This document shows, piece after piece, positions 5,386-27,332 of a stretch of 29,337 nt of DNA; position 1 is the first letter of the stretch; the number at the start of each line of letters is the position of its first letter. The DNA is from an uncultured Methanosarcinales archaeon (GTDB lineage Archaea; Nanobdellota; Nanobdellia; Woesearchaeales; ARS49), in NCBI GenBank assembly GCA_964637115.1, contig CAZWVL010000011.1:2114-31450 (forward strand), in the 5' to 3' direction. The notes below the pieces were generated by a model, which searched no databases, was not told the DNA's origin, and saw nothing but the letters and a program-made list of their open reading frames with translations. A program made the position numbers and the translations under genes.

Positions 5386-6021
5386 CTACTCGAGTGTACG
5401 CTTCACAAAGAATTCCCCCGCTTCCTTGGTAGGCATGAAAGTTTCCAACTTCAAATAGTTCATAATGAGGTCGCGAAAGCGATAAGCGTCAGAATAAATG
5501 TTCTTCTTGTGCATGGTAATCTTGTTTCTCAACTGGCGCTTAATATAAAGATCCTTGATATTCTTGAACGGCCACTTGGTCCATTCTTTCTCCTTGTCAA
5601 TGAGAAGTGCAGCGCGACAAGTAACTTCGAACTCGCTCCTGTCTGCCTTCAATTTCTGGCCTTTCCAAGCAATCTCCGTGTCCTTCAAACCAAGAATCTT
5701 CCAATCAACATCCATCATATACGTAAACAGACTTTTTCCCGGACCTGGCGGCGGCCTGGTCAAACGCCATCTCAACCAGATTTCCTTTCCAAAAGCAGGG
5801 CTCTCACGCTGCATATAATACGTCTCTGGAAATTTTGAATCATCACGGTCAGGAGTTGCCCAGCCTTCCTCAACAACCCAGTCATGAATCATTGTGTAGA
5901 CATAGCTCAAGTTGTAAGCATCACGAACCTGAATAACCCATTCCGTAACAGGAAGACGATCACAGTTCAAATAAGTCCATCGATGAATAATAGGATTATC
6001 ACTCGGCTGCTGGAATGCCAT
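5386..6021 (-). CDS. Uncharacterised protein, paralog 1 of a tandem triplet
   Basis: 211 aa ORF; TATA-like TTTATAAA about 23-30 nt upstream; shared motifs. Confidence 0.85.
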   Translation of the reverse strand: MAFQQPSDNPIIHRWTYLNCDRLPVTEWVIQVRDAYNLSYVYTMIHDWVVEEGWATPDRDDSKFPETYYMQRESPAFGKEIWLRWRLTRPPPGPGKSLFTYMMDVDWKILGLKDTEIAWKGQKLKADRSEFEVTCRAALLIDKEKEWTKWPFKNIKDLYIKRQLRNKITMHKKNIYSDAYRFRDLIMNYLKLETFMPTKEAGEFFVKRTLE

Positions 6022-6098: not shown

Positions 6099-7292
6099 AT
6101 GCTAGTCGGAATTGTAGGAAAGGCCAACGTTGGAAAAAGCACGTTCTTCAAAGCAGCGACACTCGCAGAGGCGCTGATTGCAAACTATCCCTTTGCGACG
6201 ATAAAGCCAAACAGGGCATTTGCATTCATCAAAATAGATTGTGTAGACAAGGAATTGGGAGTGCAGTGCAATCCAAAGTATGGATACTGCGTAAAGAACA
6301 AAAGATTTGTGCCAATAGAAGTATTAGATGTTGCTGGCCTGGTGCCAGGAGCACACGAAGGAAAAGGAATGGGCAACCAGTTCTTGGATGACTTGAGGCA
6401 GGCGGACGTATTTATTCATGTTGTAGATATGGCAGGAACAACCAACCAAAGAGGGGAGCCTGTCGAACCAGGCAGTTACGACCCTGCATTTGACATCAGA
6501 TTTCTTGAAGTAGAACTGGACATGTGGATACTTGGCATCATACACAGAGGCTGGGACAGGTTTGCACGCGTAGTCCAACAGGAAAAGGCGAAATTGTCAA
6601 CCGCGATGGCGAAGCAATTATCTGGATTAAACGTCACTGAAGCAATTGTTCAAGAAGCGATGGGAAAACTTGGCCTCGACCCAGAAAAACCGGCAGCGTG
6701 GACTGACCAAAACCTGCTTGACATCGCAAAGCACATCAGAAAAAGAACAAAACCGATGCTGGTTGTTGCAAATAAAATGGACCTGCCGACAGCGCAGGCG
6801 AATTTAGAAAGATGCCAAAAAGAATTCCCGGACTATACTATCATTCCCTGCTCGGGCGATTCTGAACTTGCACTAAAAGAAGCAGCAAAAGCAGGATTAA
6901 TCAGCTACATTCCAGGAGAATCAAGTTTTGAAATGAGCGACAAACTTAATGATAACCAAAAAAAAGCACTTATGTTCATAAAACAGAACGTACTTGACAA
7001 ATATGGAAGCACGGGAGTGCAAAAAGCACTTGACATAGCCGTGCTTGAACTACTGAAGTACATCGCAATATTCCCCGGAGGAGTTGGAAAGTTAGGAGAT
7101 AGCCAAGGAAGAATACTGCCAGACTGCTTCTTACTCCCACCTGGAAGCACAGCACTCGGCTTTGCAGCACACATTCACACAGACTTGGCAAAGAATTTTG
7201 TAGCGGCAATTGATGTCAAGAGCAAAAGAAAAATTGCCAAAGACACGCCGCTCAAAAACAGGGATGTTATCGAGATAATGGTCTCAAAATAG
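6099..7292 (+). CDS. ychF: YchF/Ola1 family translation-associated NTPase, archaeal type
   Basis: 'GKANVGKST', 'NYPFATI.PN', 'DVAGLVPGAHEGKGMGNQFL', 'NKMD', C-terminal TGS domain ('LPPGSTA..FA..IHTD'). Confidence 0.93.
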   Translation: MLVGIVGKANVGKSTFFKAATLAEALIANYPFATIKPNRAFAFIKIDCVDKELGVQCNPKYGYCVKNKRFVPIEVLDVAGLVPGAHEGKGMGNQFLDDLRQADVFIHVVDMAGTTNQRGEPVEPGSYDPAFDIRFLEVELDMWILGIIHRGWDRFARVVQQEKAKLSTAMAKQLSGLNVTEAIVQEAMGKLGLDPEKPAAWTDQNLLDIAKHIRKRTKPMLVVANKMDLPTAQANLERCQKEFPDYTIIPCSGDSELALKEAAKAGLISYIPGESSFEMSDKLNDNQKKALMFIKQNVLDKYGSTGVQKALDIAVLELLKYIAIFPGGVGKLGDSQGRILPDCFLLPPGSTALGFAAHIHTDLAKNFVAAIDVKSKRKIAKDTPLKNRDVIEIMVSK

Positions 7293-7956
7293 GCTCAATA
7301 ACGATCATACTTCTGCCAAACTTTTTGCTGGGAATCCAAGCTTTCCTGAAATGCTCATATGAAATGACATGCTCCATTCCCCAAGGATCACAGATAAAAA
7401 AACCCTGCTTATTGAAACCACGTACAAGAATCATATGAGTACCGATTTCTTTTGAATGATAAAATCTGCCGGCAAGCACTTCAGCAATAACAGGAATGCT
7501 CCTCTGCACATACCTCTTGATAAGTTCGATAGAAGCATTGCGGCGGTGCGCATATTTCCCCGTCTTCAAGGCTTTGCGTTCGTGCTCGGCATACAATTTT
7601 GCAAGGTCTGCAGTCCAAACACCCCAGTCTTCCAGCTCTCCGTTCCAAAAAGTTGTGACCTTGAAGCCCCTCTTGATTAAAGGCATTGCGATGCAAGCAT
7701 CACAAAGCCCTTCATATTTTTTACTTAACTGCGCCTTACGATAAAACTTCACCTCATCAATAGGGTCACCATAATAGTGCAATACCATTCTAACGCACGC
7801 GGCAAGACACGTCACAGGCAGACGCTGATGAAAACACTCAACCGGAAGAAGATATTCGCGCTTTAACACACTTCTTCCACGCTCAGTCTTTGACCAGGCG
7901 TGAAATTCGCCATATATTTCGTGCGGATGCAGAGGACATTCTTTCGATCTACGCAT
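7267..7956 (-). CDS. Peptidase C39-like (papain-fold) cysteine peptidase
   Basis: 'HQRLPVTCLAACVRMVLHYYG' (Q...C), 'GTHMILVRG' (H), 'ICDPWG' (D). Start uncertain: ATG 7956 (GAGGCG upstream) or GTG 7869. Tail-to-tail overlap with ychF. Confidence 0.8.
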   Translation of the reverse strand: MRRSKECPLHPHEIYGEFHAWSKTERGRSVLKREYLLPVECFHQRLPVTCLAACVRMVLHYYGDPIDEVKFYRKAQLSKKYEGLCDACIAMPLIKRGFKVTTFWNGELEDWGVWTADLAKLYAEHERKALKTGKYAHRRNASIELIKRYVQRSIPVIAEVLAGRFYHSKEIGTHMILVRGFNKQGFFICDPWGMEHVISYEHFRKAWIPSKKFGRSMIVIEPILRPLSR

Positions 7957-7984
7957 CGAGAATCGCCTCTTTAAACTGTGCATA

Positions 7985-8096
7985 TGCGATTCGCAAGAAA
8001 ATTCCCTGCATTTTCTGCGCCCAGAAAAGCAAAGCTTTTCTCGGGCTCGGGCCTAGAAAATCGCCCAATATCTTTGTTTTATTTGGCGATTTTCTA
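7985..8096. other. Cluster of intergenic hairpins between the GGDEF gene stop and the C39 gene
   Basis: 8054-8065/8085-8096 perfect 12-bp stem (TAGAAAATCGCC/GGCGATTTTCTA); GCCCAGAAAAGC-AAA-GCTTTTCTCGGGC at about 8019-8046; competing TTTTCTG/CAGAAAA at 8011-8028; TGCG-ATT-CGCA at 7985-7995. Confidence 0.7.
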
Positions 8097-9419
8097 CGCA
8101 TCTAATACACCTAAGTGTTTGTCAACAATAAGGAAAGCTATAACTTTGTTCTTGCCAAGGTGCTTTGCACGGTACAAGGCACGGTCAGCTTCTTTGATGA
8201 GAGTCTCTCTTGAGACAGAACTGTTCATGCAAGTAATTAGGCCGATGCTGATTGTAAGTTCACAGTTTTTCTCAACTTCAGAACGAAGTTTTTCAGCAAC
8301 TTCCTTTGCATTTTGCTGCGAATAATTTGGCAGGACCATCATAAATTCCTCGCCGCCATAACGGCAGCACATAGAGCCCTTAGGCGCAACATTCTTGATA
8401 ATTTCAGCAATAATCTTCAGAATACGGTCACCTTCAGGATGACCTTTTGTGTCATTAAAGTTCTTGAAATTGTCAACATCAAGCATTGCCAGGCTTATGG
8501 GCGAGTTTTTTGAGGAGAGATCAGAAATCAGCGAGTCAACTCTCTTGGCAAGTTCGGAACGATTGTTCAAGCCAGTCAAAGAATCAGTAACGGCAGATTC
8601 CTGCACCTTCTCAAACTGAGAAAGACGAGAAAGAACAGCAGCCAGTTCATAGAGCACTTCTGACACGCCGTCCAACGAAAACAGCTGTTCAGCAGTGCAA
8701 ACAGCGTAACCAATCATTTCTCTATTAAGAGTCAGAGGAAAGCCAACAGTGCATTTTGGAAGTTTGTCACGGTCCTTAATACCCTCCAGCAAGAAATCAG
8801 ACTGAACATTCTGAATAGTACAGGTTGTTTTAGTGCCTTTCACTTGAGCGATGACACGCTGCTCAACAGCTGCGCCAACCTCTGATACGTCAAAATTACG
8901 CGCTTTTTTGTTGTAAGCATACAATAGAACATTGCTAAGCTTGAACTTGTGCGACAAAAACTGGACAGAAGTGTACAAGGCCTTGTCAATATCCTGCACA
9001 TGCGCAATTGATTGAGAAAATTCCAGCAGAAGTTTAGCACGAGACAAAGATTCCTTTAGAATGGCTTCTGAGCGGCCGGCAGCAGCAGCCTGCCTGACTG
9101 TAATTTCTATCCAATCTGCAAATTCATCCTTCCACATTGGAAGTTTTTGCCTAGCGTCAGAAAGCTCCTCATCAAAAGCGTGCGTTTCATCAGTCTTGAA
9201 CGGACCAACAATAATCTGGCCGCTATCAATTAACACTGCAACATATTTGATTCCAGGAACAATGGAATAAGGAGCATCATTCTTACGATTGCGCAGCTCT
9301 TGGAAGAAAGACATTTTGCCAAACACCGCCTGCTCGCAAATGACAGGAGCCTTCAGCCGGGCAGACAAAGACTCTGCCAGCTCACGCCACACCTCTGTCT
9401 TGACAAATGCTGGAAGCAT
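8094..9419 (-). CDS. Sensor (PocR-like?)-GAF-GGDEF diguanylate cyclase
   Basis: 'TDSLTGLNNR', 'LDVDNFKNFNDTKGHPEGD', 'RYGGEEF' (8343-8357), 'TISIG', 'ADRALYRAKHLGKNKV'. The middle region is GAF-like ('GFPLTLNREMIGY'); the N-terminal domain call is tentative. Confidence 0.93.
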   Translation of the reverse strand: MLPAFVKTEVWRELAESLSARLKAPVICEQAVFGKMSFFQELRNRKNDAPYSIVPGIKYVAVLIDSGQIIVGPFKTDETHAFDEELSDARQKLPMWKDEFADWIEITVRQAAAAGRSEAILKESLSRAKLLLEFSQSIAHVQDIDKALYTSVQFLSHKFKLSNVLLYAYNKKARNFDVSEVGAAVEQRVIAQVKGTKTTCTIQNVQSDFLLEGIKDRDKLPKCTVGFPLTLNREMIGYAVCTAEQLFSLDGVSEVLYELAAVLSRLSQFEKVQESAVTDSLTGLNNRSELAKRVDSLISDLSSKNSPISLAMLDVDNFKNFNDTKGHPEGDRILKIIAEIIKNVAPKGSMCCRYGGEEFMMVLPNYSQQNAKEVAEKLRSEVEKNCELTISIGLITCMNSSVSRETLIKEADRALYRAKHLGKNKVIAFLIVDKHLGVLDA

Positions 9420-9444
9420 TTACTTATTGCAGAAACAAGACAAT

Positions 9445-10182
9445 TTAAAGTTTCCTGTTGGAATGACCAGAATAGGAAACATTCTCGTCATCTTCACGAC
9501 GATAAACAGCACCAGACATACGCTCCTCAATAACGTGAGCAGCAATGCCTGCAGTTCTTGGAATTATGAAGAAAGCGCGGGCAGACTGCCAAGGAAAGCC
9601 AAGGTCTGAGATAATGGCTGCAATCGCGCCATCAATGTTAAGATGCAACACTTTCTTTGTTTGCGCACAGAGTTCTTCATCAAGTTGCTTTGCGAACTTG
9701 ACGTGCTTTCCAGCAAGCTTGTGTTTTTCGGCAAGCGCGAATAAAGGAACAACTCTCGGATCTTGATCGTAATGCTTATGACCATAGCCAGGCACGCGCT
9801 CTTTTCTGGAGACCATACTTTTTACCAGTTCTGCTGCAGATTTTCCTGCATTGTCTTGGAATAATCGGGCAGCCTGTTCAACAGCACCGCCATGATAGTC
9901 GCCAATGGCAAGAGTGCCGGCTGCAACAGCAGCGTTGATTGGGTTGCCAGCACTTTGAACTATTCTAGCAGCTGTTATAGATGGCACTTGAATACCGTGT
10001 TCTGCAGCGCTCACGAAAATAGCGTCAAGAAGTTCACGCTCGCCCTTTTTTGGCAAATCTCCCTTGATAAGCAGGCAAATCATATCAGTAAAAGTGATCT
10101 TGCCTACCAATGCAGAAACATCATAGCCGCGCACACTAGCACCTTTCTCAGAAACCTTTGAAATCTTTGTATCCCATTTCAT
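9445..10182 (-). CDS. ccl: Citryl-CoA lyase (citrate synthase fold)
   Basis: 245 aa; 'EHG..VPS', 'HGGA', 'PGYGHK', 'DPR', 'LNIDG', 'PRTAG..AH..EE'; much shorter than citrate synthase; translationally coupled to the alpha subunit. Confidence 0.88.
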   Translation of the reverse strand: MKWDTKISKVSEKGASVRGYDVSALVGKITFTDMICLLIKGDLPKKGERELLDAIFVSAAEHGIQVPSITAARIVQSAGNPINAAVAAGTLAIGDYHGGAVEQAARLFQDNAGKSAAELVKSMVSRKERVPGYGHKHYDQDPRVVPLFALAEKHKLAGKHVKFAKQLDEELCAQTKKVLHLNIDGAIAAIISDLGFPWQSARAFFIIPRTAGIAAHVIEERMSGAVYRREDDENVSYSGHSNRKL

Positions 10183-11075
10183 AATGCATCCCTTATTACA
10201 TTGCCCAGTTCGTGATGATATTCAGCTATTATAGCACCGGCCTTGCGCAATTTCTCGATTTTGTCAGACGGCCTGCCCTTGCCGCGCTCAATAATCGCGC
10301 CAGCATGACCGAACTGAATTCCAGCGGGCAGGTTCTCGGCAAACTTGCCTCCGATAAACACTGCAATCGGCTTAGTGAACTCCTTATTTTTTAATACTTC
10401 CGCAATCTCATCTTCATACGTGCCACCTAACTCACCAAAAGCCACAACAGCTTTTGTCTCCTTGTCTTTTTCGAACAATCTCAGCAAGTCTGCATATGTT
10501 GAGCCTATCAACATTTCTCCACCCATGCCGATAACTGTGCTCTGGCCAAGTCCTGCTTGCCGAATAACCCAAGCAGTCTCATTAGTCATACCACCGCTTT
10601 TGGAAATAATGCCAACAGAACCTTTCTTGTAAATACGCTCAACCATATCAGGTATGCCGCCGATTGGACCGATACGCGAAAGTTCAGGACTTATCATGCC
10701 AACAGCAGCAGGGCCGATTAGAACAGCTTTCTTTTCTCTTGCTTTAGCAATCATTTCAGCAGCGTCGTGCAAGGGAACGTTTTCCGTGAATACAAGCACC
10801 AGAGGAATGTCGTTATCGAGAGCCTCGAAAACAGCGGATTTTACAAATAACGGCGGGACAACCACAAACGACGCATTAATGTCGTGCTGAGATTTTGCCT
10901 CTTTGACAGAATTGAAAACGGGAATACCATGCACTTCCTGACCGCCTTTGCCCGGAGTAACGCCAGCAGGAACTTTCGTGCCATACTGCACCATAAGCTC
11001 AGCAGCACGGGAACCCTCAGTGCCCGTAATGCCCTGAATCAATGCTTTTGTGTTTTTATCAAGCAGGATTGCCAT
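10179..11075 (-). CDS. Citryl-CoA synthetase / ATP-citrate lyase alpha-type subunit (CoA-binding, phospho-His)
   Basis: 'QGITG', 'GPAAVG' (ACL-like GPATVG rather than SCS GPNCPG), 'SKSGGMTNE' (ACL SRSGGMSNE), 'QFGHAGA' phosphohistidine loop. Confidence 0.88.
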   Translation of the reverse strand: MAILLDKNTKALIQGITGTEGSRAAELMVQYGTKVPAGVTPGKGGQEVHGIPVFNSVKEAKSQHDINASFVVVPPLFVKSAVFEALDNDIPLVLVFTENVPLHDAAEMIAKAREKKAVLIGPAAVGMISPELSRIGPIGGIPDMVERIYKKGSVGIISKSGGMTNETAWVIRQAGLGQSTVIGMGGEMLIGSTYADLLRLFEKDKETKAVVAFGELGGTYEDEIAEVLKNKEFTKPIAVFIGGKFAENLPAGIQFGHAGAIIERGKGRPSDKIEKLRKAGAIIAEYHHELGNVIRDAL

Positions 11076-12210
11076 ATTTTTTCATCTTCTCCACAATAAT
11101 TTTCGCAGTAGCGGTCAAAGGCGTCTCAGCACCATGCATTTCAATATCCCAGCCGTGCTTTTTTGCGGCATCCATCAGGATAGCCTTGCCTTCTTTTTCA
11201 TACTGGCCAGAACGCCTAACGACAATTGGAAATTTAGGATTGACTTCTTCAAAAGCCCTAACAATACCAGCCATCATGGTATCAACACGCGAAAAGTTTG
11301 CAATAGCGCCAACAATCCAACAGCCCCTAATGCCCGGTTTTGTAATAGCCTGCTTCGTCAACACATACATTTTCTCATCTGTTGGATTGCCTCCAAATTC
11401 TGTGTAATTTGCCGGCTTTCCCCCTGCGTCAATCAAAGCATCCATGCAAGTAATGCTTCCACCGCCTCCAGCGGCTAGAAAAGCGACATCACCATCAAGT
11501 TCGAGATACTTCACAGTGCCCTTGTAATCAGCATCGTTAGCTGCTTTGACCAACTTCTCACGCTCGGTCAACGGGCGGCCGATGCTTGAAGGGCGTTCGC
11601 TATATGCCCAGTCCTTATGACGCCCTAATGCAAAATCATCAAGCTCGATGTGAGCGTCAAGACAGACAAAGCCGGATTTGGTCTCTGCCACAGGATTAAT
11701 TTCAAGCAGTTTGCAGTCCTCTTTAACAAAGACATTCCAGAGCGAGACGAGTAATGGAGCAAGCGCCTTGTGCTCTTTGAGAAACGAGGCAGCCTGAGCT
11801 TCAGAAAGACCGGCGAGTTCGTTTATGACCAGTTTTTGTACTTCTTTCTGCTCTTCAATTCCGGTGCCGCCATGAAGGCTGAATAACAGAACTGGAGAAC
11901 GGGAATTAGTATCAAAAAAGAAGCTGGCGTAGTACTGTTTTTGCATTTCTATTAGGTCTTCAACCAATACGCTTTTGACTTCCTCGCCCTTCATCGATTT
12001 ACCGAGAAGGCTTACAATGGCGTTTTCGGCCTGCTTCTTGTCCTTGCAAATTTTGATGCCGCCAAGATCTGCACGCTTGCCGAACAAAACTTGGGCCTTG
12101 ACAACACAGGGAGCAGATACTTCCTGCTTTACTGACAGCAGAACGCCTTTTGGCACTACAATACCGTGCTTCTGCAACAGCGCTTTTGCCTCGTATTCGT
12201 ATAACCGCAT
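11059..12210 (-). CDS. Citryl-CoA synthetase / ATP-citrate lyase beta-type subunit (ATP-grasp plus citrate-binding domain)
   Basis: 'MRLYEYEAK', 'VVKAQV..GKR...GG', 'LEINP', 'AGGGGS', 'NYTEFGGNP', 'GAIANFSRVD', 'IVVRRSG'; start at ATG 12210. Confidence 0.9.
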   Translation of the reverse strand: MRLYEYEAKALLQKHGIVVPKGVLLSVKQEVSAPCVVKAQVLFGKRADLGGIKICKDKKQAENAIVSLLGKSMKGEEVKSVLVEDLIEMQKQYYASFFFDTNSRSPVLLFSLHGGTGIEEQKEVQKLVINELAGLSEAQAASFLKEHKALAPLLVSLWNVFVKEDCKLLEINPVAETKSGFVCLDAHIELDDFALGRHKDWAYSERPSSIGRPLTEREKLVKAANDADYKGTVKYLELDGDVAFLAAGGGGSITCMDALIDAGGKPANYTEFGGNPTDEKMYVLTKQAITKPGIRGCWIVGAIANFSRVDTMMAGIVRAFEEVNPKFPIVVRRSGQYEKEGKAILMDAAKKHGWDIEMHGAETPLTATAKIIVEKMKKYGNPA

Positions 12211-12232
12211 GACTAACTGGCAAACAGCATTA

Positions 12233-12241
12233 TTTTTAAAT
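12233..12241. promoter_or_regulatory. Single TATA element equidistant from two divergent start codons
   Basis: TTTTTAAAT centred about 27 nt from ATG 12210 (minus) and about 26 nt from ATG 12263 (plus). Confidence 0.55.
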
Positions 12242-12249
12242 CTCACTAT

Positions 12250-18705: not shown

Positions 18706-18727
18706 CCCCACCCTTTGTCGTCAATAA

Positions 18728-18837
18728 TGGACGGCCATAGGGGTCGGGTTCCACCTGGTCTCATTCGAACCCAGCAGTTAAACCGGCCTCCGTAACGGTG
18801 TGTACTCCGCTGAGGGGGAAATCCGTCAAGCTGTCCA
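18728..18837 (+). rRNA. rrf: 5S ribosomal RNA (stand-alone, about 110 nt)
   Basis: Helix I TGGACGG/CTGTCCA; conserved 'GGCCATAG', 'CGAAC', 'AGTTAA', 'GTACT...GGGAAA' blocks. Confidence 0.9.
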
Positions 18838-18885
18838 CCTTATATTCTCCTTAAATTTAAATAAAGAGCCAAAGTAACTAACCTC

Positions 18886-24713: not shown

Positions 24714-26321
24714 TTAAACCTTCTGCTTGACGACAGCCTGCACAAAACCCAAGAATAGCGGATTTGGATTTTCCAGTCTTGAAGTTAGTTCATTGTGAGC
24801 TTGAGTTGCGACAAAAAATGGATGTTTTGAAAGCTCAATATATTCTACAAGACGCTTGTTCTCTGAAACGCCAGAGAAAATCATACCGTGCTTAAGCAAA
24901 ATATCGTGATATTTTGGATTAACTTCGTATCTGTGCCTGTGTCTCTCCCAAGCTTCGTCTGCATTGTAAAGTTTTTGAACAATAGAACCTTTTTGCAAAA
25001 CTGCCTTGCACGCGCCCAGTCGCATAGTACCGCCCTTTGCGGTTATGGTGCGCTGCTCTGGAATGTAATCAATGATAGGATCAGGAGTTTTTTCATCTAT
25101 TTCAGTTGTGTGAGCTGCTTTTAGATTGCAGACATCTCTTGCAAACTCAACAACTGCAAGCTGAAGACCATAACAAATGCCGAGGAAAGGAATATTATGT
25201 TCACGGACGTACTTTATAATTGCAATTTTACCTTCAACACCACGCGAGCCAAAACCGCCCGGAATAAGAACACCGTCAACACCTTTCAGGGCTTCTTCCA
25301 CAGGGATTTTGTCCTGCTCAATATCCGTTGTTTCAATCCATTTCAGATTAACGTGAGCATCACAATGCGCGCCGGCGTGCGTTAACGCTTCAGAAATACT
25401 GGCATAGCTGTCCTTGAGCTCAGTATATTTTCCGCAAACAGCAACAGTAACCTCCTTCTTAGGAGACTTAATCCTGTTGACTAATTTCTCCCATTCAGTC
25501 AAGTCCTCCTTGAAATCAAGCTTAAGTTTTTCCTTAATGCGGTCAAGCAAACCTTCCTTCTTGAACATCAAAGGAATCTCGTAAATGCTCTCAATGTCCT
25601 TGCCGCTAATCACTTCGTTTGTAGGAACATCACAGAACAATGCAATCTTTTCTTTCAACTTTACAGAAAGCGAGTTTTTGCTTCTGCAAATAATAATGTC
25701 AGGAGAAATCCCCTTTTCCCTCAACAGTGCAATGTCTCTCTGTGCAGGCTTGGTCTTAGCCTCACCAACGCTATCAAGGAATGGAACATAAGTCAAATGA
25801 ATGTAAATGACATTGTCCTGGCCGACCTGCTTTTTCAACTGTCTGGCGGCTTCAATGAACCAAGAGTTTTCAATGTCACCAACTGTACCGCCTATTTCTA
25901 TAGTCATAATGTCAGGTTTTTCTTGATCAACAATTTCCTTCCACCAGCGCTTAATTTCATCCGTAATATGAGGAAAGATTTGAATGGTCTTGCCAAGATA
26001 CTGGCCTTCACGCTCCTTTGCTATGACGCGGCTGAAAACTTTTCCTGACGTAAGATTCCAACTGGACTTGCACGTTACGCCAATAAAGCGCTCATAATGG
26101 CCAAAGTCCATGTCAACCTCGCCACCATCAGCAAGAACAAAGACTTCACCGTGCTCAACGGGATTCATAGTGCCAGGGTCAACGTTCAGATAACCGTCAC
26201 ACTTTATTGTAACAATCTTATGATGGTCCTTCAGAAGGCGGCCAATGGCAGCAGTTGCAGTACCTTTACCTAAACCAGAAAGAACTCCGCCGGTAACAAC
26301 AATATATTTTGTTTGGTGCAC
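24714..26321 (-). CDS. pyrG: CTP synthase
   Basis: 'TGGVLSGLGKG', 'DGYLNVDPGTM', 'EIGGTVGDIE', 'PGGFG.RG', 'GICYGLQ', 'RHRHRYE', 'HNE' triad. Confidence 0.97.
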   Translation of the reverse strand: MHQTKYIVVTGGVLSGLGKGTATAAIGRLLKDHHKIVTIKCDGYLNVDPGTMNPVEHGEVFVLADGGEVDMDFGHYERFIGVTCKSSWNLTSGKVFSRVIAKEREGQYLGKTIQIFPHITDEIKRWWKEIVDQEKPDIMTIEIGGTVGDIENSWFIEAARQLKKQVGQDNVIYIHLTYVPFLDSVGEAKTKPAQRDIALLREKGISPDIIICRSKNSLSVKLKEKIALFCDVPTNEVISGKDIESIYEIPLMFKKEGLLDRIKEKLKLDFKEDLTEWEKLVNRIKSPKKEVTVAVCGKYTELKDSYASISEALTHAGAHCDAHVNLKWIETTDIEQDKIPVEEALKGVDGVLIPGGFGSRGVEGKIAIIKYVREHNIPFLGICYGLQLAVVEFARDVCNLKAAHTTEIDEKTPDPIIDYIPEQRTITAKGGTMRLGACKAVLQKGSIVQKLYNADEAWERHRHRYEVNPKYHDILLKHGMIFSGVSENKRLVEYIELSKHPFFVATQAHNELTSRLENPNPLFLGFVQAVVKQKV

Positions 26322-26417
26322 AATTTAGAAAGTATTGAATACTTTAAAAAGTTTTTGATACTGCAAAACAGAGATAACAAAGCAAAAATTATATACGACA
26401 GCATATTTTTTAACGTC

Positions 26418-27332
26418 GTGATATCAATTTATTGTTCTGAAAAGCTGGACGGAGTGGCTGCAGCAGCAATTATCATGCGCCACGCAATTCTTGGAAAGCT
26501 CCCTGTGCACTTCGGGGGATTTTTGCATCCAGATGCACTTGATGAAGAGCTGGCTGATATGGCAAATGATGAACACAAACTGGTTTTCGTGCTTGATATC
26601 GGCGTGATGCCGGAACACCTGCCGTTAATAGAGAAAGCCAGCCAAAAAAACAAGATTGTCTATTGGAACACGCACGATGCAGATAGCATAATTCCTCCAG
26701 CAAAAATCTTTGACTGCGCTGTCGAGAATAAATGTTCTGCAGAACTTGCCCAGCAGCGCTTTCTGCCAAATGACTCTATCGCAAAAAAGCTTGCGCAATT
26801 GGCGCATGAAATGAAGTTCTGGCAGATACAGGACGAAACCGCTGCAAGACTGTCGGACTTAATTGCTGCCGGCTATAATCCGCTCGAGCTTCTTGACTCA
26901 ATGGCACGAGGAGCATTCTGGAACCCGAAATTCGAAGAATTCCACAAAGAACTGCTCGAGAAAAAATTAGAAGCGTTTGATGAGCTTCTGAAATCACTTA
27001 TTGTAAAGTCGTATGTTAACTATCGCTTCGGCTTTGCAATGGCATCCTCGATCCTTACAACTGCAGACGCCTGTCAAAAAGTCCTTGATGGCCATGCCGG
27101 CATTGATGTGGCTGTTGTTTTATACAGAGACGGGAGAATAGGCTTCAGAAGAAGAGACGAGTGCGACGTAAACGTCAAGGAACTAGCAGTGCTGTTCAAA
27201 GGAGGAGGAATGCCGTTTGCCGCCGGCGCAAAACTCAGAATGCAGATATCAAAAGAAAACCTGCCAGAAGTATTGTTCTATCTTGACCAAGCGTTCAAGA
27301 ATTTCTTTGTGGGAATTAAGACAGTTGCATAA
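26418..27332 (+). CDS. DHH/DHHA1-fold protein with degenerate catalytic motifs
   Basis: 'SEKLDGVAAAAI' (motif I-like), 'VLDIG', 'WNTH' in place of DHH, DHHA1 'FKGGGMPFAAG'. GTG 26418 chosen from the TATA at 26389-26395. Confidence 0.8.
   Translation: MISIYCSEKLDGVAAAAIIMRHAILGKLPVHFGGFLHPDALDEELADMANDEHKLVFVLDIGVMPEHLPLIEKASQKNKIVYWNTHDADSIIPPAKIFDCAVENKCSAELAQQRFLPNDSIAKKLAQLAHEMKFWQIQDETAARLSDLIAAGYNPLELLDSMARGAFWNPKFEEFHKELLEKKLEAFDELLKSLIVKSYVNYRFGFAMASSILTTADACQKVLDGHAGIDVAVVLYRDGRIGFRRRDECDVNVKELAVLFKGGGMPFAAGAKLRMQISKENLPEVLFYLDQAFKNFFVGIKTVA

Follow-up and report, generated by a model that had tools for sequence, protein, structure and literature searches.

The GGDEF gene and its catalytic domain

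The window analysed here, a stretch of 29,337 nucleotides (nt) from contig CAZWVL010000011.1 of assembly GCA_964637115.1 (positions 2,114 to 31,450), belongs to an archaeon that named homologues place in Woesearchaeota and whose genome of 1.27 Mb is 98 % complete. Its reverse strand carries, at window positions 8094..9419, a whole gene for a predicted sensor diguanylate cyclase of 441 amino acids (aa), recognized from its open reading frame (ORF), its translation, a Pfam GGDEF match at 3.5e-39 and an AlphaFold model. The ORF consists of 441 codons with zero internal stops, and its product is laid out, from the N- to the C-terminus, as a probable PocR remnant, a GAF domain, a signalling helix, a GGDEF domain and a clade-specific C-terminal tail. 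The Pfam GGDEF profile (PF00990) matches residues 276-425 from end to end (profile positions 1-161 of 161; E 3.5e-39, 134.6 bits against a cut-off of 23.8), and NCBIfam model TIGR00254 matches the protein with an E value of 3.9e-40 (137.3 bits, cut-off 37.4). At the sequence level the 441-aa protein is confirmed as a genuine GGDEF protein with intact catalytic residues.

Residues were mapped by a HMMER alignment to PleD (1w25), for which the published residue number is the chain index plus 1, and conservation was read from an orthologue alignment of 48 sequences extending from 100 % down to 31 % identity. The DSLTG wide turn occupies residues 279-283. D314 corresponds to the metal-binding D327 of PleD, N322 and D331 correspond to the guanine-binding N335 and D344, and the segment R353-Y-GGEEF, with the GGEEF hairpin at residues 355-359 (nt 8343-8357, reverse strand), corresponds to R366 and GGEEF 368-372; all of these are invariant in the 48 sequences. 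K419, the counterpart of the phosphate-binding K442 of PleD, is likewise invariant in the alignment, and K423 stands in place of R446, a conservative change within a G(K/R)N motif that at least 90 % of the sequences retain. A preliminary description made from the sequence had listed all canonical diguanylate cyclase motifs and a retained guanine-specifying Asp, and both statements are borne out, the motifs being invariant or nearly so among the 48 orthologues. The persistence of the catalytic residues down to 31 % identity points to purifying selection. Position 331 holds Asp, invariant in the family, where Hypr enzymes have Ser, so the product is most likely cyclic di-GMP (c-di-GMP) rather than cyclic GMP-AMP (cGAMP).

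The RxxD inhibitory site (I-site), which lies five residues upstream of GGDEF in cyclases of the PleD/WspR type, is replaced by PKGS (residues 346-349; nt 8373-8384, reverse strand), which falls exactly on the RAID I-site of PleD, as the preliminary description had it. At least 90 % of the orthologue family share P346, and no Arg occurs there. Since the I-site is missing, the cyclase would escape inhibition by its own product. The catalytic domain as a whole spans residues 278-431 (8127..8588, reverse strand), as delimited by superposition on 5euh and 1w25, residue mapping and invariance. It is followed by a conserved tail (residues 426-441; 8097..8144, reverse strand) that was recognized from the orthologue alignment and the model and reads VxAFxxVDKxLGxxD, with D433 invariant; in the orthologue alignment this tail is a signature of the archaeal clade, and the model has two extra strands in the tail region.

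Predicted structure and sensor modules

The AlphaFold model was built on the 48-orthologue alignment and has a mean predicted local distance difference test score of 92.6. Its GGDEF domain superposes on GcbC (5euh) and PleD (1w25) with a root-mean-square deviation (rmsd) of 1.3 Å over 155-158 residues (Z 24-25), and the Foldseek probability for the GGDEF fold is 1.00. A homodimer prediction made with two copies and the same alignment gave a median score of 0.39 against a mark of 0.42, with controls at 0.00.

Upstream of the catalytic domain the model contains, all on the reverse strand, a shortened, probably PocR-derived alpha/beta module that lacks the Cys/His cluster (residues 1-95; 9135..9419; assigned by orthology, hhalign and alignment), a long connecting helix (residues 98-138; 9006..9128; DSSP), a GAF-fold sensor domain (residues 144-245; 8685..8990; VIA-align) and a helical linker, or signalling helix, that ends in the DSLTG turn (residues 249-277; 8589..8675). 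The linker aligns with the stalks of WspR, DgcB and SadC. The GAF-like N-terminal region of the preliminary description is supported by the fold, as residues 122-275 match many GAF domains at Z 14-16. Over residues 105-275 the GAF domains 3p01, 3trc, 4g3k and 8jrc are matched in VIA-align at Z 14-15.6, and superpositions on the first three have rmsd values of 2.8-3.8 Å with 139-162 residues aligned. The fold of the N-terminal module was assigned from tandem-GAF alignments of the whole model. Residues 1-275 match no Pfam family at E values up to 1, GAF and PocR (PF10114) included, and Pfam GAF models match orthologues of the cyclase though not the cyclase itself.

The derivation from PocR is drawn from relatives. 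Positional orthologues in genera g32, g11 and g34 of the same family have a canonical PocR domain at 1e-22 plus GAF; hhalign of the cyclase N-terminus against their PocR region gives a probability of 84 % (E 7.7e-6), and a BLASTP comparison restricted to the N-terminal halves yields E 7e-8. The cluster of the orthologues (FFC...FCTLC...CH) has been dismantled in the cyclase, in which the first Cys is replaced by Q40 ('FFQ'), FCTLC is deleted and CHAG has become PGI, and the orthologue alignment places two deletions in the module. The region had been described as PocR-like and Cys-less; the loss of the canonical Cys/His cluster stands, one cysteine (C28, unrelated to the PocR cluster) is left in the module, and the likeness to PocR is supported indirectly.

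Synteny, distribution and phylogeny

The guanine-plus-cytosine (GC) content is flat across the locus and, as the preliminary description stated, the cyclase gene lies among archaeal genes, including those for a Pelota/eRF1-type factor, a YGR210-like Obg-family GTPase, an NFACT protein and a KTI12-like protein. GGDEF matches were found in 14/14 genomes of the genus and 24/24 of the family, and the cyclase orthologue in 51/61 family genomes. The convergent neighbour of the cyclase gene is the GTPase gene (6099..7292, forward strand; Pfam), and the orthologues lie tail-to-tail with it in 20 or more of the 29 family loci and also in loci of other families; this adjacency persists at about 35 % identity, even where the cyclase has shrunk to a GAF-GGDEF protein of about 330 aa.

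The two genes form part of an ancestral block of five, comprising a conserved hypothetical gene, the YGR210-like GTPase, GGDEF, DHH-DHHA1 and AbrB-PhoU genes, that is shared by three or more families of the order. The hypothetical gene (5386..6021, reverse strand; no Pfam match) is the outer member of the block and is conserved beside the GTPase gene in other families as well. The block recurs in families f42 and f51 and in G046 and L053; the loci examined were G127, G291, G156 and G284 from other families, G046 from the window's family, and contig L053. It is complete in G127, G156 and L053, runs into a contig end in G291 and G284, and is present without the hypothetical gene in G046. In the window's sub-lineage it is broken between the GGDEF and DHH genes, with DHH-DHHA1 and AbrB-PhoU lying together on another contig of the genome (C2), and in the window's genus their former place is occupied by a cluster resembling citryl-CoA (coenzyme A) synthetase and lyase genes.

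A maximum-likelihood tree of 123 GGDEF domains was inferred and left unrooted; its bacterial comparison set represents the best among the matches listed (600 stretches) and is no census. As many as 43 of the 45 archaeal domains form one clade (Shimodaira-Hasegawa-like approximate likelihood ratio test, SH-aLRT, 85), and all positional orthologues and L053 belong to a 39-row core of this clade (SH-aLRT 98). Among the matches listed, the nearest bacterial GGDEF domains with names, 77 in all, lie outside the clade, and this settles the question, raised in the preliminary description, of an archaeal clade versus a recent transfer in favour of the former. The position and phylogeny of the gene indicate that it is native to Woesearchaeota and vertically inherited. 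An ancient bacterial transfer into the ancestor of the order is possible, because the tree is unrooted and the bacterial set consists of the matches listed. Unpublished genomes entered these comparisons as rows in the genome tallies (G010, G023, G054, G064, G075, G081 and G300) and as loci in the synteny table and tree (L011, L012, L030, L041 and L044), and no conclusion rests on them alone.

The PocR-GAF-GGDEF proteins P0076-P0081 were considered as a bacterial sister group and rejected, being 94-100 % identical to proteins of the Woesearchaeal genomes G067 and G076. One of them, P0078, is labelled Candidatus Binatia bacterium at NCBI; its identity to the orthologue from Woesearchaeal genome G076 is 76 %, and of the proteins that cluster with it, P0077 matches a Woesearchaeal genome sequence at 100 % identity and P0076 one at 94 %. 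Given these identities, the bacterial label of P0078 is probably a binning error. Contig L053 (CAYHOF010000027.1), labelled uncultured Methanosarcinales, has 57-62 % GC and the full five-gene block, and its GTPase is as similar to that of the window (61 % identity) as are those from within the window's family. Either L053 carries a wrong taxonomic label or archaeal lineages have exchanged the block.

Other features of the locus

A C39-like peptidase gene (7267..7983, reverse strand; Pfam Peptidase_C39_2, 1.7e-11) lies between the GTPase and GGDEF genes. It is an insertion found in same-genus loci only and stands outside the ancestral block. The 3' ends of the GTPase and peptidase genes overlap by 26 nt (7267-7292), and in relatives without the peptidase no more than a few dozen bases separate the end of the cyclase gene from the GTPase stop codon.

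On the other side, a TATA-like TTTAAAT (9443..9449, reverse strand) is centred about 27 nt upstream of the cyclase ATG and overlaps the stop codon of the gene upstream. It is found at the same distance in 5/6 congeners, including G013, in which no citryl-CoA lyase gene was found upstream, and this conservation suggests that it belongs to the cyclase gene itself; it is possibly a promoter of its own, from which a leaderless or short-leader mRNA would start. Three overlapping or adjacent genes (9445-12246, reverse strand) lie immediately upstream of the cyclase gene, and their products are an ATP-grasp/citrate-binding subunit of 395 aa, a CoA-ligase alpha-type subunit of 298 aa and a protein of 245 aa whose match to the citrate-synthase profile is confined to the C-terminal part of the latter. 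The set resembles a two-step ATP-citrate lyase, made up of a split citryl-CoA synthetase and a citryl-CoA lyase. Such a set is unusual for a DPANN genome of this size (1.27 Mb), and its placement beside the cyclase, confined to the genus, is recent. Further along the window, a 5S ribosomal RNA gene (18727-18839, forward strand; Rfam, 66.4 bits) occurs singly, flanked by sugar-nucleotide genes on one side and a 2'-5' RNA ligase-like gene on the other.

Candidate partners in the genome, family and phylum

The preliminary description had seen no EAL, HD-GYP or PilZ gene in the window. This is correct, and it extends to the whole genome: a scan for EAL, HD_5 (HD-GYP type), PilZ and MshEN, which it had proposed, found none of them, and no c-di-AMP cyclase was found either. 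The single HD-domain protein of the genome was rejected as an HD-GYP candidate, as it is a nucleoside 2-deoxyribosyltransferase-HD fusion. The c-di-GMP-I riboswitch model (RF01051) had no match in the genome, and the control likewise matched in no genome.

Two further GGDEF genes are present, on contigs C7 and C2. The C7 paralogue (L002 598-2019, forward strand; 473 aa) has GGEEL instead of GGEEF and an RKSD motif that coincides exactly with the I-site position; its place in the tree is on a long branch outside the main archaeal clade, by a Methylococcaceae sequence. The C2 protein is degenerate, with a KRGDEF hairpin that recalls the unconventional motifs of archaeal metagenome-assembled genomes (MAGs), e.g. 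RYGGDKGDEF (PMC13725321), and its gene adjoins that of a cyclodipeptide synthase (Pfam CDPS, 1.4e-34); the synthase and GGDEF genes lie at L003 6-791 and 1036-2265, respectively, both on the forward strand (G000 contig C2, about 84.3-86.6 kb).

EAL was found in 0/61 family genomes. Short HD_5 proteins of about 215 aa with HHE...SYP in place of the HD-GYP signature occur in 9/61 (for example L046 1456-2100 and L047 1447-2094, both reverse strand), and these could be divergent c-di-GMP phosphodiesterases. PilZ proteins with intact RxxxR and DxSxxG motifs were found in 3/61 genomes, all in the sister genus g2. They are stand-alone proteins of about 150 aa (L049 1435-1902, reverse strand; L050; L051), and their gene adjoins, in a conserved arrangement, those of an ArsR-type helix-turn-helix membrane protein and a SIMPL/DUF541 protein. 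From this PilZ and the I-site of the C7 paralogue we infer that c-di-GMP is made and sensed inside the cells of the lineage.

In a phylum sample of 301 high-quality genomes, GGDEF was found in 137, HD_5 in 48, EAL in 5 and PilZ in 4. HD_5, EAL and PilZ were all not found in 104 of the 137 GGDEF-positive genomes, among them that of the window. Co-occurrence of HD_5 with GGDEF is weak (odds ratio 1.85, Fisher p 0.059, for genomes that are not independent of one another). GGDEF-HD-GYP and GGDEF-EAL fusions, in single frames of 632-726 aa, exist in other families (G120:C3:44413-45384; G185:C58:7007-8227; G031:C4:20095-21366), and these single frames indicate that parts of the phylum have composite turnover proteins.

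Cyclic or linear dinucleotides are broken down by DHH-DHHA1 enzymes such as GdpP, NrnA, CnpB and PggH. In 18 loci the cyclase gene has a DHH-DHHA1 gene of the same orientation upstream of it; both ORFs are resolved in 16 of these loci, the gaps are -31 to +572 nt, so that the genes overlap at times, and the orthologue is kept in 24/24 family genomes sampled, the copy of the window's genome being on contig C2 (10273-11325; L133 1480-2562). This conserved, co-oriented adjacency makes the DHH-DHHA1 protein a candidate phosphodiesterase. Against the idea, the protein has a weak likeness to RecJ/GAN nucleases (58-63 bits against cut-offs of 360-397); outside the window's family its orthologue occurs in 15/38 against a base rate of 112/276 and does not track GGDEF, so that the link between the two is one of adjacency; and the GTPase neighbour is equally conserved, so that synteny alone can persist. 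Woesearchaeales, and much of the phylum, may have a non-canonical c-di-GMP system in which DHH-DHHA1 is the phosphodiesterase (for c-di-GMP or pGpG) and the receptors belong to families so far unconnected with c-di-GMP, a proposal that is tentative and at present unlikely; the divergent AbrB-PhoU regulator of the block is one candidate receptor. The genome has at least three DHH-type genes, in the window (26313-27332, forward strand), on contig C2 and on contig C19. The one in the window encodes 339 aa with a weak DHHA1 match of 3.9e-5, below the cut-off, and was rejected as the cyclase-linked gene because it has no significant similarity to the latter, whose orthologue is on contig C2.

Interpretation

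The locus probably encodes a native Woesearchaeal cytoplasmic sensor cyclase, inherited vertically, that makes c-di-GMP for internal use through non-canonical receptors and a non-canonical degrading enzyme. The degenerate, probably PocR-derived module and the GAF domain would sense a signal, and the ligand or state sensed would shift the register of the helical linker. The register would in turn control whether two GTP-loaded GGDEF domains pair productively, and the dimer would condense two GTP into c-di-GMP, by analogy with the solved GAF/stalk-GGDEF enzymes. With no RxxD I-site, product inhibition would not be expected, and the c-di-GMP would serve intracellularly, sensed and degraded by proteins other than those of the canonical PilZ, EAL and HD-GYP families. 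In evolutionary terms the gene would have descended vertically from a PocR-GAF-GGDEF ancestor inside the five-gene block. In the sub-lineage the PocR would have lost its cysteine cluster, the DHH-DHHA1 and AbrB-PhoU genes would have moved to another contig, and the citryl-CoA synthetase/lyase cluster and C39 peptidase gene would have arrived beside the cyclase.

Several observations weigh against this account. No complete circuit can be drawn, as EAL, HD_5, PilZ and MshEN were not found in the organism's own genome, and according to PMC13725321 and PMC8646023 c-di-GMP has not been detected in any archaeal cell. The published assays concern other archaeal GGDEF proteins, and those of DPANN proteins were inconsistent across read-outs (PMC13725321). 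Within the protein, a Lys stands where PleD has R446, the N-terminal module has no Pfam match, and the PocR ancestry is that indicated by an hhalign probability of 84 % together with orthology.

Some of the same facts suit a protein that has an intact GGDEF domain in sequence and yet is no c-di-GMP synthase in the cell, acting as a GTP-binding sensor or scaffold or making another nucleotide (cGAMP, a linear dinucleotide or the like). Such a role would explain the missing c-di-GMP receptor and phosphodiesterase, canonical partners having been found neither in its own genome nor in 104 of the 137 GGDEF-positive genomes of the phylum, and it agrees with the catalysis-independent phenotypes of several archaeal GGDEF proteins in Salmonella (PMC13725321) and with c-di-GMP not having been detected in archaea (PMC8646023). 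It is nevertheless distinctly unlikely. The catalytic and guanine-specificity residues are invariant over deep divergence, which is unexpected for a pure scaffold; Asp331 occupies the position at which Hypr cGAMP synthases have Ser, the criterion used in PMC13725321; and the I-site and PilZ motifs of the relatives are specific for c-di-GMP.

The preliminary description had also offered a symbiont making a signal that acts on a host or partner cell rather than on the archaeon itself. DPANN archaea are often episymbionts, the genome is small and no internal receptor was recognized in it, all of which would suit such a signal. Against it, the sensor domains are intracellular, nothing in the protein resembles an export signal, no delivery route is in evidence, and sensing inside the cell is implied by the genome's own I-site paralogue and by the sister-genus PilZ; the proposal finds no support here and is very improbable. 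That the gene came recently from bacteria by horizontal transfer, or that bacterial DNA was joined to an archaeal contig in assembly or binning, might be suspected since GGDEF domains are overwhelmingly bacterial and the close relative P0078 is labelled 'Binatia bacterium', but this is scarcely credible, as the GC content is flat, dozens of genomes from several families, assembled independently of one another, have the gene in the same position, the archaeal clade is separate from the 77 nearest named bacterial domains among the matches listed and the 'Binatia' label is itself probably an error, so that the chimera and recent-transfer versions are refuted.

The native cytoplasmic cyclase thus described makes the question of archaeal c-di-GMP concrete, with a defined cyclase and a defined candidate phosphodiesterase. 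PMC13725321 left questions on the spread of archaeal GGDEF proteins, on inheritance versus transfer, and on the degradation and sensing of the product. For one phylum these receive partial answers, in that GGDEF is common (137/301), old and vertical in the five-gene block, and mostly without partners (104/137). The assignment of DHH-DHHA1, if true, would represent a second, archaeal solution to c-di-GMP turnover.

Comparison with known systems

In 2018 one archaeal GGDEF alone was accepted (PMC5847659). The BLAST survey of Braun et al. in 2021 reported more than 300 archaeal GGDEF hits, many of them in Asgard and DPANN archaea (PMC8646023), and in September 2026 Sidorov et al. described several archaeal proteins, including ones from DPANN MAGs, with catalysis-dependent read-outs in bacteria, the riboswitch read-outs of the DPANN MAG proteins in E. 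coli being dependent on catalysis; distribution and phylogeny, like the phosphodiesterases and receptors, were left open (PMC13725321). The view taken in the preliminary description, that c-di-GMP signalling is essentially bacterial with few archaeal GGDEF proteins, does not survive these reports or the 137/301 phylum genomes counted here. Its proviso that such proteins might already be well characterized in the lineage holds in part, since DPANN MAG cyclases have been shown in Salmonella and E. coli (PMC13725321). Because of the 2021 survey and the 2026 assays, this kind of gene is no longer new, and the cyclase gene of the window is one more member of an already published class.

The set of Sidorov et al. 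(PMC13725321) comprises the REC-PAS-PocR-GGDEF-HD-GYP protein of Methanocella arvoryzae and MAG proteins including KHO53289.1, KHO53915.1, RJQ22058.1 and KYK22704.1. These share with the cyclase archaeal flanks, an intact GG(D/E)EF motif with substrate residues, and Asp at the Hypr position. PocR and GAF N-terminal sensors occur in both, and a 'PocR-GAF' architecture is listed among the 20 MAG proteins of that study; for some of the proteins, c-di-GMP read-outs in E. coli and Salmonella depended on catalysis. The main text of PMC13725321 does not name MEM3154785.1, VVB81368.1, MBW2969936.1, MBI4146560.1, RJQ19321.1 or HLF54200.1, which are linked to the orthologue family. Sidorov et al. described archaeal GGDEF genes as sporadic and single-copy, whereas in the phylum sampled here they occur in 137/301 genomes with up to 6-7 separate matches in a genome of about 1 Mb.

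The bacterial GAF/stalk-GGDEF enzymes compared were PleD (1w25, 2v0n), WspR (3bre, 3i5c), GcbC (5euh), DgcB (6ttr) and Dcsbis (4zmu). The cyclase resembles them in its GGDEF fold (rmsd 1.3-1.9 Å), in identical active-site residues, in the helical stalk that runs into the DxLTG turn and in having N-terminal sensor domains, at 31-39 % identity in the GGDEF domain only. It differs in that PleD, WspR, GcbC and DgcB are product-inhibited, whereas it has no RxxD I-site; in its tail (residues 426-441), which is absent from the bacterial set; and in its host, an archaeon in which no EAL, HD-GYP or PilZ was found. The Hypr cGAMP synthases (GSU1658/GacA and MXAN_2643) share the GGDEF fold and a GGEEF-type active site, and have Ser at the position of PleD D344 where the cyclase and its family have Asp.

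Also compared were the canonical PocR-GAF-GGDEF proteins found within the cyclase's own archaeal family (P0076-P0081, L039, L040 and L043), which are about 503-515 aa long, lie beside the same GTPase gene and show 30-35 % full-length identity to the cyclase. They share its GAF domain, linker, GGDEF domain and C-terminal tail, and with GTID at the RxxD position they too have no I-site. The PocR-bearing orthologues keep CxxC...CH and a Pfam PocR match at 1e-22, whereas the cyclase has lost these residues and about 32 residues of the domain. In other genera a third natural form, the GAF-GGDEF protein of about 330 aa, has lost the module entirely, so that the three make up a natural series of sensor decay, from PocR with cysteines, through PocR without them, to none.

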